A stretch of 64,000 bases of DNA from Cyanobacteria bacterium P01_A01_bin.123 (GTDB taxonomy: Bacteria; Cyanobacteriota; Cyanobacteriia; Phormidesmidales; Phormidesmidaceae): NCBI GenBank assembly GCA_039815185.1, contig JBCBZT010000023.1:1-64000 (forward strand), written 5' to 3'. A program made the translations under genes and the position numbers. The notes under the pieces are model-generated. The model did no database searches and had not been told where the DNA came from. It worked only from the letters and a program-made list of their open reading frames with translations. This document shows positions 24,905 to 29,792 of the stretch, piece after piece. Positions within the stretch are counted from its first letter, which is position 1, and each line of letters begins with the position of its first letter.

Positions 24905-25585
24905 ATGAAAATTGGCATTTTAGGCAGCGGTAACATGGGGCGATCGCTAGGAGCACTGTGGGCTGAGCAAGGCCACCAGGTTTTTTTCGGGTCTCGCAGT
25001 GCAGACAGGGGGCAGCAGGTGGCGACACAAGTGGGTCGTAATACTCAAGGCGGTACCAATGATCAGGCAGCGTCGTTTGGGGACATTTTGCTGTACACCA
25101 TTCGGGGTGTTGATCCGGCAGTAGTCTTGTCTAACACAGCGGTGCTGGATGGCAAGGTGCTAATTGATTGCAACAATTTTGATATTCCTGAAGGCTTTGC
25201 CTACGAGCCAATCACCTGCTCCCTGGCAGAAACCCTTGCAGAACAGGTGCCAACTGCGAAAGTCGTCAAGGCATTTAACACGATGGCGCAAGAAGTGTTT
25301 GAGCTGTCGCCCCAGCCTTTAGCGCAGCACAATGTGTCGGTCTTTTTAGCTGGGGATGATGCTACCGCCAAGCAAACGGTGGCGCAACTTGCCGAAGAAA
25401 TCGGCTTCCAGCCTTTGGATTGTGGCCCGCTCCGTCAAGCTCGCCTGCTTGAAGGGTTGGGGGATTTTATTCGCCTGATGATTATTGGTCAAGGGTTGGG
25501 ATCCTACGCTACGTTATCTGTGAATGTTTTGCCCCCGACTGAACAAGCACGCCTCGGCGGGCGTCAAGCGTCCTCACTGCATTAA
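24905..25585 (+). CDS. NADPH-dependent F420-reductase-like oxidoreductase
   Basis: MKIGILGSGNMG, IDCNN, VVKAFNT, AGDD; GGAG RBS. Confidence 0.88.
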   Translation: MKIGILGSGNMGRSLGALWAEQGHQVFFGSRSADRGQQVATQVGRNTQGGTNDQAASFGDILLYTIRGVDPAVVLSNTAVLDGKVLIDCNNFDIPEGFAYEPITCSLAETLAEQVPTAKVVKAFNTMAQEVFELSPQPLAQHNVSVFLAGDDATAKQTVAQLAEEIGFQPLDCGPLRQARLLEGLGDFIRLMIIGQGLGSYATLSVNVLPPTEQARLGGRQASSLH

Positions 25586-25608
25586 CAATCAGTCTTGCCA
25601 CTCTAAAA

Positions 25609-25677
25609 TTCGATTGCTAGCATTGGTCTAATCGAACTCTGTTTTATCGCGGCTGCTGAACCCGATAATTAACAGAG
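25609..25677 (+). promoter_or_regulatory. Two adjacent hairpins in the leader; the second sequesters the RBS
   Basis: TTCGATT/AATCGAA (25609-25636); CTCTGTT-TTATCG...CGATAA-TT-AACAGAG (25637-25677) overlapping AGAGG. Confidence 0.5.
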
Positions 25678-25686
25678 GTAACCCCA

Positions 25687-26016
25687 ATGAATTCATCTCG
25701 AACACGGGCTTGGCGACGTGCCCAGCGCAACCGCTGTGTTGCTAAGCGACAACAGCAGATCAGGATTGCTCAGCAGCGTAAAAATTATAGTTTCCTGCAC
25801 GGTCATTTGGCTGATGGGCCTGGTCCGGAGGCAGGTCGGCTTGCTAAGGCAAGCATTACTCAATGCGGTTATTGGGCTTTGCGCAAGCCTAGTAAGCAAT
25901 GGAAACTGCTCTGGTTGCGATCGCAAAAAGTTTCCCGAGCTAAGCAATTGAAAACGTTTTATCCCAGGAAGTTTTGGGAGTTGGAAATTGCACATGAATG
26001 TTTTGTTCATCTGTAG
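25687..26016 (+). CDS. Small Arg/Lys-rich hypothetical protein
   Basis: AGAGG RBS; RTRAWRRAQR...KQWKLLWLRSQKVSRAKQL; overlaps the next gene. Confidence 0.65.
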   Translation: MNSSRTRAWRRAQRNRCVAKRQQQIRIAQQRKNYSFLHGHLADGPGPEAGRLAKASITQCGYWALRKPSKQWKLLWLRSQKVSRAKQLKTFYPRKFWELEIAHECFVHL

Positions 26017-26317
26017 TCGTAACCAATGGCGGAGTCCCACGGCAGAAGCCGTGTGGTGTAAACTTCCGGGGCTGAGTGTCCGATCAGCGGGCACCAGCCC
26101 CAACGCCAAAAAAACAGTCACAGTTGTAGATATTCGCTGGGCAGACGTCATCTTCGTCATGGAGACGAAGCATAAACAGCGCTTACAGGCTGAGTTCTGT
26201 CAATGGGTGACTTACAAACGGATTGAAGTTTTAGATATCCCAGATGACTACCGATACATGGATCCGGAATTAGTCGGAATCTTTGAAGCTGAAGCTGAAG
26301 CTTTTCTCAATGAATAA
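25994..26317 (+). CDS. Low-molecular-weight phosphotyrosine-phosphatase-like protein
   Basis: VLFICSRNQWRSPTAE (CX5R P-loop), SAGT, WADVIFVME, LDIPDDY. Confidence 0.92.
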   Translation: MNVLFICSRNQWRSPTAEAVWCKLPGLSVRSAGTSPNAKKTVTVVDIRWADVIFVMETKHKQRLQAEFCQWVTYKRIEVLDIPDDYRYMDPELVGIFEAEAEAFLNE

Positions 26318-26362
26318 CGTCTTCCCTAAGGAAGCAACTTCTCGCTAAACGCTGAAGATCAC

Positions 26363-26436
26363 TCCGGGGTAGTTCAACGGTAGAACGCTCGGCTTGGACC
26401 GAGAGGGCGCTGGTTCGACTCCAGCCCCCGGATCCA
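26363..26436 (+). tRNA. tRNA-like RNA with a non-canonical 6-nt anticodon loop (CTTGGA) and encoded CCA; isotype not assignable
   Basis: Acceptor TCCGGGG/CCCCGGA, D arm GTTC-AACGGTA-GAAC, anticodon stem CTCGG/CCGAG, variable AGGGC, T arm GCTGG-TTCGACT-CCAGC, then T-CCA. Confidence 0.85.
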
Positions 26437-26457
26437 CCCAATTCTGGTTAAGTAAGT

Positions 26458-28857
26458 ATGCAAAAGCATAATCCTAGGAGCAGCGCTGATGTAGATACAG
26501 CACAGGTGAACCCGGGTTATCCCCTGTTCCAAATTGCTAAGGCACTAACGACGGCAGAACACCACGAAGACCCGGCCACTCGCGAGCGTGCCCAACAGCG
26601 GATCGTGAAATGGACAGCAGTGCTGAACGGGCTCCTGAATGGAACCGTGGATGTGGGTTCGCGATCGCCGCTCGAAGGTGTTCCCAATTGGGTGACGCTC
26701 GAAGTTGTCACAGGCGGTTTTGCCACTGGGCAGTTGATGGCGGGTGGGCCGCTGCTTGAACACGAGTTAGCCTTATTGGCCGAATTACCAGGCAAGTCAG
26801 AAGCCGATGGACGGCGCGCACTCAATGGATACTTCGTCACCGATGAGGGGCTCGATAGACTGCAACGACTGCTCCAGTCAGGTTGCTACGAGGTTACCAT
26901 TCCTGAAGAGGGGGCGCTGCTCGTTGTTGCCTGGCTGGTGCACCAGGGCTATGCAGATCAGGCGCGGGAGCTGTTAGCCCAGTTAGCACCGTGGTTTTCA
27001 AGGCTGCGGTTCTATCCCATACCCACCGATCGTCCCTGTCGCTTGGGTTCCCAGGTGTGCTTGCAAACTGTCGGCAATACGGTTGCCAGTCTTAAGCAGA
27101 TCGAACCTAACCCCCACATCTTGGCCCAGAAGGAAGCGGTGAATGTTTGGGCACCGCTCTATGATCGAACGGTTAGCCTGTTTATAGAGACAGTTGAAGG
27201 GGATACGCCCCATCTGCAATGTGACCGAGAGGGTCGTTGGGTACACTCGCCAGACGGCAAATTCCCTGTTGAAGGGGGCTGGCCCTGCCGCCAGTATCCT
27301 GGAGGTTGGCAGGCCCGCGCCAAGGGCTTGCTAAACGAGTATAAGCAGCAGCGGAGTCGGTATACACTTTGTGGAAAACCCGAACGCAAAAAAGAGAGCT
27401 TTTACCAGCTACGGAAATTCTTAAGGCAGATTTTGCGGGATCCTCAATCTCTGAGTGGTCGTGACGTAGGGCGGATCAGGCTGATTTTGGCTCGTTATGT
27501 GACGAAACGGGGTGTACCTGGTTCGCCACAGTGCAGTGCGGTTCGCGAACGGCAGACTCAACAAGTCAAGGCACCCACTTTTCAGGAAATTGCTGAAATC
27601 GTGATTCGACGGTTGGCAGCTTATCCCCTAAAAGACGGTCTCGATGACATTCGTCCGGTTGTTCAACCCGTTACCGATGTAGAGGCGAGGCAATGGCAAG
27701 TTGAAGCGAGAACATCCGTGGCGCGATCGCTGCAACGAAAGGTAGAGCGCTGCCTGCGAGAGACGGTGGAAGTACTGGTAGAACGAGGCATGATCACCTC
27801 GGGTGAAACGTTAGCTCGAGTGCTGCCTCAGATCACCTCAGAGATCAGAGCTGCGGGCGTTACTGAACCCACGCTGCGTCAGCTGTATGCTTCACTCTAC
27901 CGAGCTTTTAGACGGCGGCGATCGCTGCTGTTACTCAACTTAGAAAAGCAGATTCAGATTGAGGAATTGCCTTGGGTGGCTGCCATCGATCGCTTTCGCA
28001 GCGACAACCTCTCAGCTAGAGAATTGGCGAGACAGACCCTTGAGGAGATAACGCGCTTAACCCTAACGTCTTTTCCCCATGCCATTCTCCCGAATAAGCT
28101 GCTCCAAGAACTACGAGCCCTTGCGAAGACAGCGATGTTCGATCTACCGCTCGTAGATGAAGTTGCGGCGGATATCTTCATGGGGACATTCTCCAACAAG
28201 TTCCTCAATGCGGCGAAGCGGGCTGCTGATTTCCTGGAAGGCACGCTGTATGCAACCTATTACGGCATCGACTATCAGCAAGTGCGGGCGATTCCAGACA
28301 GCCAATCAGCGCAACGGTCGTGGTTCCGGAAAAACCATCATGATCCGTTTATGGCTCTCTGCGAATCAAGGGCAGGTGTTCGTTATGGCAGCTGGGATCC
28401 AGCGATCAACGGCATGATCATCGAGCAACAACAAATCCTGACGTCGCAGAATCTAGCGGTGCTATTTTCGGGTCTCGATCTGATCGATGCGCTAGAAGAT
28501 CAATTGGCCGATTTGGCTCGCCGCTGCTTCACCTGGATTTGTAAACGCTTGCAGATGAAAACTGACAACTGGCATGCCCAACTTATCCAAGTCAAAAATA
28601 CGGCTTATGCCTGGCGGCAAATGGTCTTTTTCTTATCTCTCTTGTCAAATCAGCAAATAGGCGATTTCCTCAACTGGGCAGAAGCATACCTGGCTAAACA
28701 ACCCGCGAAATTTCAAAATCGCTTTCGCCCTGCCCTGAGGGGGCTTGTGCTGGCTACGGCTGGCTGCTCAATTGAAGAGAATGCTGTAAATCATCTAAAT
28801 GCCTACCGTTTTACGGGTTGGTCTAAAAAGAGACATTGGCTGCTGACTGACACTTAA
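26458..28857 (+). CDS. Large hypothetical protein (799 aa), no domain recognised
   Basis: Long ORF starting 21 nt after the tRNA-like CCA; motif-like blocks RAFRRRRSLLLLNL, ADIFMGTFS, IEQQQILT, KNTAYAWRQM. Confidence 0.85.
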   Translation: MQKHNPRSSADVDTAQVNPGYPLFQIAKALTTAEHHEDPATRERAQQRIVKWTAVLNGLLNGTVDVGSRSPLEGVPNWVTLEVVTGGFATGQLMAGGPLLEHELALLAELPGKSEADGRRALNGYFVTDEGLDRLQRLLQSGCYEVTIPEEGALLVVAWLVHQGYADQARELLAQLAPWFSRLRFYPIPTDRPCRLGSQVCLQTVGNTVASLKQIEPNPHILAQKEAVNVWAPLYDRTVSLFIETVEGDTPHLQCDREGRWVHSPDGKFPVEGGWPCRQYPGGWQARAKGLLNEYKQQRSRYTLCGKPERKKESFYQLRKFLRQILRDPQSLSGRDVGRIRLILARYVTKRGVPGSPQCSAVRERQTQQVKAPTFQEIAEIVIRRLAAYPLKDGLDDIRPVVQPVTDVEARQWQVEARTSVARSLQRKVERCLRETVEVLVERGMITSGETLARVLPQITSEIRAAGVTEPTLRQLYASLYRAFRRRRSLLLLNLEKQIQIEELPWVAAIDRFRSDNLSARELARQTLEEITRLTLTSFPHAILPNKLLQELRALAKTAMFDLPLVDEVAADIFMGTFSNKFLNAAKRAADFLEGTLYATYYGIDYQQVRAIPDSQSAQRSWFRKNHHDPFMALCESRAGVRYGSWDPAINGMIIEQQQILTSQNLAVLFSGLDLIDALEDQLADLARRCFTWICKRLQMKTDNWHAQLIQVKNTAYAWRQMVFFLSLLSNQQIGDFLNWAEAYLAKQPAKFQNRFRPALRGLVLATAGCSIEENAVNHLNAYRFTGWSKKRHWLLTDT

Positions 28858-29615
28858 ATAATGGTTTTGCCACCGTCTGCAACAATGGCTGCTCCATGGA
28901 CAAACTCGGCATCACTTGTGGCTAAAAATAAGGCCACACGGGCAATCTCTTCAGGTTTGCCCAGGCGGCCCGCAGGGATGGTGGAAATCACGGCCTGTTC
29001 TTCTGCTGTTGGGTTACTGCCTATGGCAAACTCGGCATGAATCATCGGTGTGTCGATGGGGCCAGGGCAAATGGCATTCACCCGAATGTTTTGGGCTGCC
29101 CACTCTGTCGCTAAGGCTCGGGTTAGGGCAAGCACACCGCCCTTGGTGGCACAGTAAGCACTATATAACGGTTGCCCTACAACACCAAGTTCTGATGCCG
29201 TATTGATGATAATGCCTCCGCCTTGGGTCACCATCTGAGCAATGGCGTGTTTGCACCCGAAGAACACCCCTTTGAGATTCACACCCAACAGCTTGTCGAG
29301 ATCAGCCTCAGTGATTTCAGTAATCGGTTTGAGGATAGAAATTCCGGCATTGTTGTGAATAACATCAAGTTTCCCAAACTGGTTAACTGTGGTCGCGATC
29401 GCGTCCTTGATCTGTTCTTCCTGGCTAATATCAACAATCAGACTGCAACACTCTCCTCCCGCAGCCTGAATCGATTGCTGCGTGGCTTGTACTGCATCAG
29501 CATCTAAATCAGCCGCCACTACGGTTGCGCCTTCACGGGCAAAACACGCCGCTGTGGCCCGGCCAATTCCAGCGCCAGCGCCCGTTATGAGACAAACTTT
29601 TCCGTTTAACCGCAT
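28854..29615 (-). CDS. SDR family oxidoreductase
   Basis: ITGAGAGIG, NNAG, YCATK, RVNAICPG. Confidence 0.93.
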   Translation of the reverse strand: MRLNGKVCLITGAGAGIGRATAACFAREGATVVAADLDADAVQATQQSIQAAGGECCSLIVDISQEEQIKDAIATTVNQFGKLDVIHNNAGISILKPITEITEADLDKLLGVNLKGVFFGCKHAIAQMVTQGGGIIINTASELGVVGQPLYSAYCATKGGVLALTRALATEWAAQNIRVNAICPGPIDTPMIHAEFAIGSNPTAEEQAVISTIPAGRLGKPEEIARVALFLATSDAEFVHGAAIVADGGKTII

Positions 29616-29792
29616 AGGGTCAACCTCTATTGCATATCTTTTCAAGCTACTCCACCCGCGTATGATCGCGGACTAGTGAGGAAAACCCACTGACGAGAGT
29701 TCTAGCCTTTTTCCAAATGTTATTCGTAACAACTAAAACAGTTATGCTTTGCGACTTTAACTACGGTTTGAGAGACGATTGAAGACTGTTTT

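Follow-up and report, generated by a model that had tools for sequence, protein, structure and literature searches.

We describe here a conserved unit of two parts, a non-decoding tRNA-shaped RNA and the gene of a protein of ~790 amino acids (aa) with an undescribed fold, which lie in a stretch of 64,000 nucleotides (nt) from contig JBCBZT010000023.1 of Cyanobacteria bacterium P01_A01_bin.123; this whole stretch is called the window below. Its recurrence in many bacteria that are not related to one another makes it probable that the pair is an RNA-protein machine not described before. As read from the sequences, the RNA would be a dedicated, co-transcribed ligand of the large protein, serving as its cofactor or as its operator, and we give this reading a probability of about 0.6. 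An earlier note on the window had proposed an RNA-linked module of four elements, which also included a basic open reading frame (ORF) and a phosphatase ORF of the low-molecular-weight protein tyrosine phosphatase (LMW-PTP) family. The RNA and the large protein did turn out to be a linked, stand-alone unit, while the phosphatase and the basic ORF lie outside it and are neighbours in this cyanobacterium only.

Linkage, structure and conservation of the RNA and the large protein

The locus set comprised the window, one locus from a Planctomycetota metagenome-assembled genome (MAG; L001, the sole locus from the genome collection) and 77 metagenome loci, 79 in total. The metagenome loci were fetched with the alignment of the protein family, and ARAGORN and then a family model of the RNA (R1) were run over all loci. 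Ten loci are without the N-terminus or the upstream DNA (L003, L010, L013, L016, L017, L018, L022, L042, L063 and L075) and two hold gene fragments only (L011 and L056). Among the 67 assessable loci, 60 carry the RNA upstream of the gene, 59 of them in full and one (L044) cut by the contig end (36 bits). The RNA was also present in all seven actinobacterial records, and it stands beside the protein gene in five of the eight Planctomycetota genomes that hold the N-terminal part. When the genome locus G301, which is the same place as L001, was counted once, a homologous tRNA-like gene was found directly upstream on the same strand in 71 of 81 assessable loci, a strongly positive outcome of a check that the earlier note had proposed. 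Loci with the RNA come from Cyanobacteria, Planctomycetota, cultured Actinomycetota and soil metagenomes; in L001, a near-identical tRNA-like gene ends 10 nt before the protein match. This adjacency of RNA and protein is far beyond chance. In addition, the sequence types of the RNA are co-inherited with the clades of the protein tree, which has 65 rows (14 loci with ORFs shorter than 650 aa, L062 and L068 among them, were left out).

ARAGORN called the window RNA 'tRNA-???' with a two-base anticodon, and the Rfam family RF00005 matched it at 61.7 bits (E 6.1e-11; gathering score 29), which is the sole Rfam match in the 64-kb window. In the window RNA the stems are standard, the anticodon loop (CTTGGA) is 6 nt long and CCA is encoded. 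When we aligned 50 RNAs of the family, 99.9% of the cells of the cloverleaf were paired, and compensatory changes that altered both sides were seen in 13 of the 21 pairs. These values were matched by none of 500 shuffles, and the covariation signal was lost once the partners were slid by one to three columns. Stem lengths are the standard 7/4/5/5. Three sequence types were distinguished, whose acceptor stems open TCCGGGG, CTTGGAG and CGACGUG and which are related to one another through compensatory changes. Of the 50 members, 37 encode the CCA where it normally stands and four more encode it one base later; no CCA is present in the five actinobacterial copies read, and 18 of the 60 ARAGORN calls of the host genome end in CCA, the tRNA-like RNA included.

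The window RNA scored 95 bits with model R1 against at most 71.3 bits in the rest of the 8.09-Mb genome, and the RNA of the Planctomycetota MAG scored 87.4 bits at the locus against at most 63.8 bits elsewhere. In these two genomes, which were the ones checked, there is thus a single high-scoring copy, and it adjoins the gene. The actinobacterial type reached only 53-66 bits, within the range of ordinary tRNAs, and therefore score alone cannot exclude divergent copies elsewhere. No close relative of the window RNA was found among the other 59 ARAGORN tRNAs of its host. Elsewhere in this genome, contig C96 shows at least four tRNA-model matches within ~1.2 kb (~90328-91467), including ARAGORN calls for Met (90595-90669) and Gln (91391-91467) with encoded CCA; this may be a tRNA cluster, unlike most tRNA genes of the host.

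The body of the RNA is nearly frozen. In 17 close pairs it shows 0-4 changes in 67-68 nt, and the four-fold sites of the adjacent genes differ by 5-60%. The consensus of the model and the actinobacterial RNAs share the D arm, GGCU, ACC and GAGGGCGC; these parts comprise, besides the D arm, the last part of the anticodon stem including C32-U33, ACC at its 3' side and the variable loop. The actinobacterial type does not keep the T loop: together with the D-loop GG, this loop is present in the window RNA and in most type-A and type-B members, and actinobacterial copies (five alignments) have GGCGGCA-like T loops and AGCAGCA-like D loops instead. Position 8 is an A in several members, and ARAGORN missed two of the five actinobacterial copies scanned.

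On this body the anticodon loop varies in both length and sequence. It is 7 nt long in 40 of the 50 sequences, 6 nt in seven, 5 nt in two and 4 nt in one, and 30 distinct loops were counted. Columns 34-37 are four of the six most variable columns, the remaining two being one D-loop and one T-loop position. Because a loop of 4-7 nt in 30 forms among 50 sequences sits on a near-frozen body, the RNA is, as judged from its sequence, predicted not to decode. The loops differ even between loci whose proteins are 90-97% identical. In three such comparisons, L060/L061, L064/L069 and L048/L051, the loops differ at three, two and one of the four central positions and the four-fold sites by 14%, 19% and 7%, respectively, with 0 of 68 changes in the body each time. 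It looks as if the loop turns over faster than silent sites, an impression drawn from a few events and not a formal test. Tandem copies of the RNA with different loops are present in four loci, two copies in L029, L031 and L102 and three in L121. The three loops of L121 (Embleya sp. NBC_00888, positions 1134-1475 of the locus) are CTTCGGA, CTTCGGT and CTCTCAA, and the ATG of the gene starts one base past the discriminator-plus-one position of the last copy. Enrichment of the RNA's own codon in the ORF was not seen (its use exceeds the mean of the others in 22 of 39 loci), and the anticodon loop paired with the 70 nt upstream or downstream no more than in shuffled pairings.

The RNA also stands close to the start codon. 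In most loci, 0-27 nt separate its end from the start codon; most of the type-A loci have their ATG or GTG at +15 to +27 nt from the RNA end, often with a purine-rich stretch in between. The ATG follows 1-3 nt past the discriminator base in five Streptomycetaceae loci, and the RefSeq coding sequence of Streptomyces yangpuensis begins at the base right after the RNA. Two RefSeq-derived tables skip a locus tag (RS33905 and RS20980), which suggests an annotated RNA gene at this place. In L048, 11 nt separate the end of a promoter-like site (TTCACA-17-GACAAT) from the RNA, and the hexamers are visible in related loci too. The sigma-70 scan found no site before the RNA in two Streptomycetaceae loci; by eye, TTGCAC and TAGCCT-like hexamers were seen in these loci when read against a Streptomyces consensus. 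One spacer is unusually long: in L029 (2344-2453), ~110 nt filled with GC-rich near-repeats of a GGCCGG-type unit lie between the second tRNA-like copy and the ATG.

The large protein (799 aa in the window) matched no family in Pfam, NCBIfam, PADLOC or PHROGs, and a PDB sequence-profile search and the named clusters of the ESM Atlas gave no match either, which agrees with the suspicion of the earlier note that the protein is new. It has many relatives. A word-index search returned at least 1813 proteins at E <= 0.001 (among 8000 candidates), and the best 120 relatives are 55-97% identical over nearly the full length, have no precomputed Pfam domain and bear source names that are 'hypothetical protein' or blank. 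An exhaustive search of representatives at 50% identity gave 1523 clusters at E <= 0.001, 1208 at <= 1e-10 and 772 at <= 1e-30. No domain fusions were found in six longer relatives, and no TROVE family match was found at E up to 1 in the 50 family members scanned.

The AlphaFold2 model, based on a 50-row alignment, is confident, with a predicted local distance difference test (pLDDT) of 90.4 and a predicted template modelling (TM) score of 0.84. Helices make up most of the modelled fold, and its N-terminal third also holds small beta elements; the invariant residues, which include an RRS-LLL run and several acidic residues, cluster at ~62-150 and 484-720. Residues 470-799 folded alone gave a pLDDT of 83.8. 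When Foldseek was run against the PDB, a check that the earlier note had proposed, neither the whole model (best TM ~0.1) nor the C-terminal domain had a match at E <= 0.001. VIA-align over 48,161 chains matched the whole model only via the N-terminal helical hairpin (Z up to 8.0). For residues 470-799 the best rows were helical-repeat proteins (CKM, NOT1 MIF4G, PP2A B56 and the exportin Cse1), and their Z of up to 5.2 counts as noise by the notes of the tool.

By source names, the family is present in at least four phyla, Cyanobacteria, Planctomycetota, Actinomycetota and Pseudomonadota; the members include a cyanobacterial MAG, Candidatus Thiodiazotropha, Planctomycetota and a MAG of Terriglobia, a class of Acidobacteriota. 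A tblastn search located the family in seven plasmid or large-replicon records of cultured actinobacteria (two each of Embleya, Streptomyces and Curtobacterium and one of Kitasatospora). The carriers named in these records include Streptomyces yangpuensis CM253, Kitasatospora sp. NBC_01300, Embleya sp. NBC_00896 and Curtobacterium sp. MCSS17_016. In the S. yangpuensis plasmid (L096, 1-4782), the module lies just downstream of IS21-family and IS982-family transposase genes. Among the sampled genomes the protein occurs in 1 of 301 of the window's phylum, namely the window's own genome, and in 9 of 301 of Planctomycetota. The gene match is split in two of the Planctomycetota genomes, in one of them with a stop in one piece, and carries a stop in a third (L110/L107 in G384, L111/L108 in G515 and L104 in G531), which suggests decay of some copies. 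No relatives were found in phage records or viral contigs. Despite the high identity across phyla (50-68%), this distribution has the pattern expected of an accessory, horizontally moving gene.

Proposed role and competing explanations

We suggest that the RNA is a ligand dedicated to the adjacent protein. Specific recognition of the RNA, most simply by that protein, is indicated because the core is frozen, the RNA types are co-inherited with the protein clades, tandem copies are kept, and the conserved parts differ from those that ribonuclease (RNase) P and RNase Z need. Both parts would probably come from a single transcript, with the RNA heading the mRNA of the protein as its 5' leader, and RNase P and RNase Z/E would probably trim the RNA, leaving an almost leaderless mRNA in Streptomycetaceae. 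The protein would hold the cloverleaf by its invariant core, which consists of the D arm, the variable loop and the anticodon stem with C32-U33, and would leave the anticodon triplet free; the RNA could be the cofactor or the specificity module of the resulting ribonucleoprotein. Alternatively, the protein may repress its own translation by way of the RNA, which would then be an operator, a role that is possible because the RNA abuts the ribosome-binding site or the start codon.

Two known systems resemble the unit in part. The Ro60 (Rsr)/Y RNA systems also pair a tRNA-like non-coding RNA with a large, mostly helical RNA-binding protein encoded beside it, and they too are sporadic in bacteria; the bacterial YrlA RNA carries a tRNA-like domain. 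Unlike them, the present system has no TROVE domain in the protein or the genome and no linkage to RtcB, and its RNA is a complete cloverleaf without an extra stem, 0-27 nt before the start codon on the same strand. Operators that mimic tRNA, known from the 5' leaders of genes whose products bind tRNA, such as that of thrS in Escherichia coli, resemble the operator form in that a tRNA mimic beside the ribosome-binding site of the gene for the would-be binder would allow translational autoregulation; however, thrS mimics the anticodon arm only, with an essential loop, whereas here a whole cloverleaf is present and the anticodon is its one free part.

Several observations weigh against a dedicated ligand. 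First, 10 of the 81 loci are without the RNA, and the protein can therefore persist without it, or with an RNA too divergent to be recognized. Seven of these are among the 67 loci described above (L019, L033, L047, L062, L066, L068 and L076), and in all of them except L019 no RNA or degenerate copy appeared even with the filters of the model off; the other three are Planctomycetota genomes, which likewise have no degenerate copy at the locus and in which model R1 matched nowhere at or above 80 bits (best 73, 70 and 64 bits), the five top matches checked being ordinary tRNAs. Second, four of the RNA-less loci form one clade with type-B loci in the protein tree, which looks like a single loss. 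Third, no enzyme or RNA-binding signature was found in the protein model, whose best structural scores are at noise level. Finally, other partners than the large protein could account for how extremely the RNA is conserved. In L019, five ordinary tRNA genes (Thr, Met, Asn, Ile and Gln; 13-516) with encoded CCA end 87 nt before the protein match.

The main rival is a pure processing signal, in which the tRNA shape would only recruit RNase P and RNase Z/E, setting a defined short or leaderless, or a stabilising, 5' end of the mRNA, and the RNA would be a by-product. The tight hold of the RNA against the start codon agrees with this, as does the ability of some lineages to do without it. So does the layout of Streptomycetaceae, with the ATG 1-3 nt past the discriminator and no encoded CCA, an RNA without encoded CCA being the substrate form cut by RNase Z. 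Comparable elements are mascRNA at the 3' end of MALAT1, the t-elements of plant mitochondria and mitochondrial tRNA punctuation, in which a tRNA shape likewise abuts an RNA whose end would be set by processing enzymes; the near-leaderless layout fits such signals. However, a signal of this kind has no need for a frozen sequence, yet 0-4 changes in 67-68 nt stand against 40-60% four-fold divergence. Conservation is highest in the D arm, the anticodon stem and the variable loop; the T loop is not kept in the actinobacterial type, the acceptor stem differs from one RNA type to another, and 37 of 50 members encode the CCA, which blocks RNase Z. In addition, the sequence is tied here to one protein family across phyla, whereas the three known examples are not known to co-evolve with one particular protein. 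We regard a processing signal on its own as unlikely.

A bolder form of the ligand reading would give the loop a meaning. The RNA may be a tRNA scaffold used outside translation, whose fast-changing triplet is a programmable specificity element of the new-fold protein, the two forming a widespread class of bacterial ribonucleoproteins not described before. The protein might then recognise through the triplet a codon, a tRNA-binding factor of an enemy or some other short motif in RNA; its range would be widened by tandem copies that differ in their triplets, and loop turnover above that of silent sites would reflect selection for new specificities. We hold this form to be somewhat less likely still, and offer it as speculation.

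More doubtful again is a conflict system, either a type III toxin-antitoxin or a decoy, in which the protein would attack tRNAs or translation and the tRNA mimic would be a pseudo-substrate inhibitor or a sensor, with its anticodon in an arms race. In type III systems such as ToxIN, one promoter, an RNA gene and a protein gene follow one another, with the RNA presumably cleaved out of the shared transcript and bound by the protein. The layout here is similar, since the RNA lies directly upstream of the gene with a gap of 0-27 nt in most loci and the two would be co-transcribed. Loops that change between very close relatives, the sporadic distribution (1 of 301 and 9 of 301 genomes), the actinobacterial copies on plasmids or large replicons beside insertion sequence (IS) elements and the split or stop-carrying copies would all suit such a role, and so would the few matches to Hen1, HAD_SAK_2, Fic, Uma2, DUF4365 and MZB among the 119 ORFs of 110 aa or more that flank the loci most closely. 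On the contrary, the neighbourhoods consist mostly of ordinary metabolic and regulatory genes, no PADLOC or PHROG match was obtained, phage records and viral contigs contain no relative, and the cross-phylum identity of 50-68% is unusually high for a defence gene. Moreover, the RNA is a single cloverleaf, or two to three in tandem in four loci, and not an array of short pseudoknot repeats, and the protein of ~790 aa matches no PADLOC model.

We also considered an unusual decoding tRNA, used for recoding or deliberate mistranslation, with the large protein as its dedicated factor. The canonical cloverleaf, the CCA in 37 of 50 members and the Rfam tRNA score of 61.7 bits would fit, and diverse triplets on one conserved body recall the published allo-tRNAs. 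These and other odd-loop bacterial tRNAs, found mostly in soil bacteria, likewise combine one body with many anticodons; they differ in having altered stem lengths and being proposed decoders, whereas the RNAs here keep the standard 7/4/5/5 stems, vary in loop length from 4 to 7 nt and go with one fixed protein. Decoding is made very improbable by the 10 of 50 loops with 4-6 nt, that of the window included, by the A at position 8 in several members, by the loss of the T loop and the D-loop GG in the actinobacterial type, two of five copies of which escape ARAGORN, and by the lack of own-codon enrichment (22 of 39 loci above the mean of the others).

No description of this RNA-protein module was found in the literature or in Rfam 15 (subscription-only papers lay outside the search). 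If the reading as a dedicated ligand is true, a protein family of more than 1500 clusters and its matching RNA family have both gone unnoticed, the RNAs probably having been labelled odd tRNAs or pseudogenes by annotation pipelines. The pair would be another reuse of the tRNA fold outside decoding, and its transcript a natural case in which a tRNA shape defines where an mRNA begins, nearly leaderless in Streptomycetaceae. For annotation it would serve as a warning that 'tRNA' calls with varied anticodons beside the gene of this protein are one non-decoding family. The proposal is directly testable, as cultured strains of Streptomyces, Kitasatospora, Embleya and Curtobacterium carry the locus.

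Arrangement and neighbours in the window

The features of the region in the window are as follows.

25582-25609, + strand: promoter-like match TTAACA-16-TAAAAT, 10 of 12 consensus positions
25595-25623, + strand: promoter-like match TTGCCA-17-TAGCAT, 9 of 12 consensus positions, overlapping the 25582-25609 match
25687-26016, + strand: basic ORF, 109 aa, rich in Arg and Lys, from the ORF list
25988-26317, + strand: phosphatase ORF of the LMW-PTP family, 109 aa, TTG start, with CSRNQWRS and a PF01451 match
26363-26436, + strand: tRNA-shaped RNA (ARAGORN, Rfam RF00005), CCA at 26434-26436
26437-26457, + strand: spacer of 21 nt from the CCA to the start codon
26458-28857, + strand: ORF of the large protein, 799 aa, no family match

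The four elements are indeed co-oriented and tightly packed, as the earlier note had described: the basic ORF and the phosphatase ORF overlap by 29 nt, 45 nt lie between the phosphatase stop and the RNA, and 21 nt between the CCA and the large ORF. The ATG at 25994 is a likelier phosphatase start than the TTG. The promoter calls are matches to the sigma-70 consensus only, three sites against 0.9 expected in shuffles, and both promoter-like matches listed lie upstream of the basic ORF; the scan of the window found no sigma-70-like site directly before the RNA. The matches at 25582-25623 may be the local promoter of the co-oriented block in this genome. Because these are the only promoter-like sites and no terminator-like site was found in 25400-26600, the four elements may share one transcript here. 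The 21-nt spacer is, by its length, too short to hold a separate promoter or terminator. When DNA contigs of a close strain (~98% identical) were aligned to the region, the whole arrangement was found to be kept, and among the differences listed there is no variant between 26309 and 26537.

The phosphatase has a CX5R(S) phosphate-binding loop, CSRNQWRS, near its N-terminus and matched the Pfam family LMWPc (PF01451) at E 2.1e-6 with 28.4 bits (cut-off 23.2), in a partial alignment of residues 5-46 to profile positions 1-51 of 144. It has at least 7980 relatives of ~108 aa, whose source names include Nodosilinea, Romeriopsis and Pseudomonas species, and thus appears, by its sequence relatives, to belong to a huge stand-alone family outside the conserved module. 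The basic ORF had no Pfam or NCBIfam match and only two homologues, at 97% and 57% identity; it is best described as an orphan and a local neighbour, likewise outside the module. When all ORFs of 70 aa or more from the 79 loci were compared with one another, neither of them had a homologue within ~3 kb in the 78 other loci, and no conserved neighbour family occurred in more than five loci, shadow frames of the gene aside.

The 119 flanking ORFs are heterogeneous and mostly ordinary metabolic or regulatory genes. Those linked to RNA or tRNA are Hen1 (L031), HAD_SAK_2 (L066), a weak match to a DSP phosphatase (L021), TrmK (L041), a synthetase of class I for Trp/Tyr (L015) and an RF-1 domain (L063), and those linked to conflict or mobility are Fic, Uma2, DUF4365, MZB, three transposase-related ORFs and a relaxase. 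In L031, the gene of the Hen1-type RNA-repair methyltransferase (1035-2486, - strand; PF12623, E 4e-114) lies divergently upstream of the two tandem tRNA-like copies. As a functional clue, the RNA-repair and conflict genes are a hint only, and the role in RNA repair or defence that the earlier note had envisaged is a guess based on their thin scatter. The check for co-occurrence with repair genes proposed there came out negative: no linkage to rtcB, rtcA or rsr was found, the sole RtcB match of the genome being on contig C14 and not on the window's contig, and no TROVE domain was matched in the host genome.

It is hardly credible that all four elements form an RNA-repair unit, or that the RNA is a tRNA-like remnant of a genomic-island attachment site: co-orientation without a terminator in between and a weak upstream match to a DSP-type phosphatase in L021 (E 3e-6) would suit the former, but the phosphatase and the basic ORF lack homologues in the 78 other loci, and as to the latter, the RNA is not close to any of the 59 other host tRNAs, is conserved across phyla while host tRNAs differ, and has no integrase among the 119 flanking ORFs scanned. 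At its 3' end, the ORF of the large protein overlaps by 4 nt with a convergent short-chain dehydrogenase gene (28854-29645, - strand; PF13561, E 1e-63).

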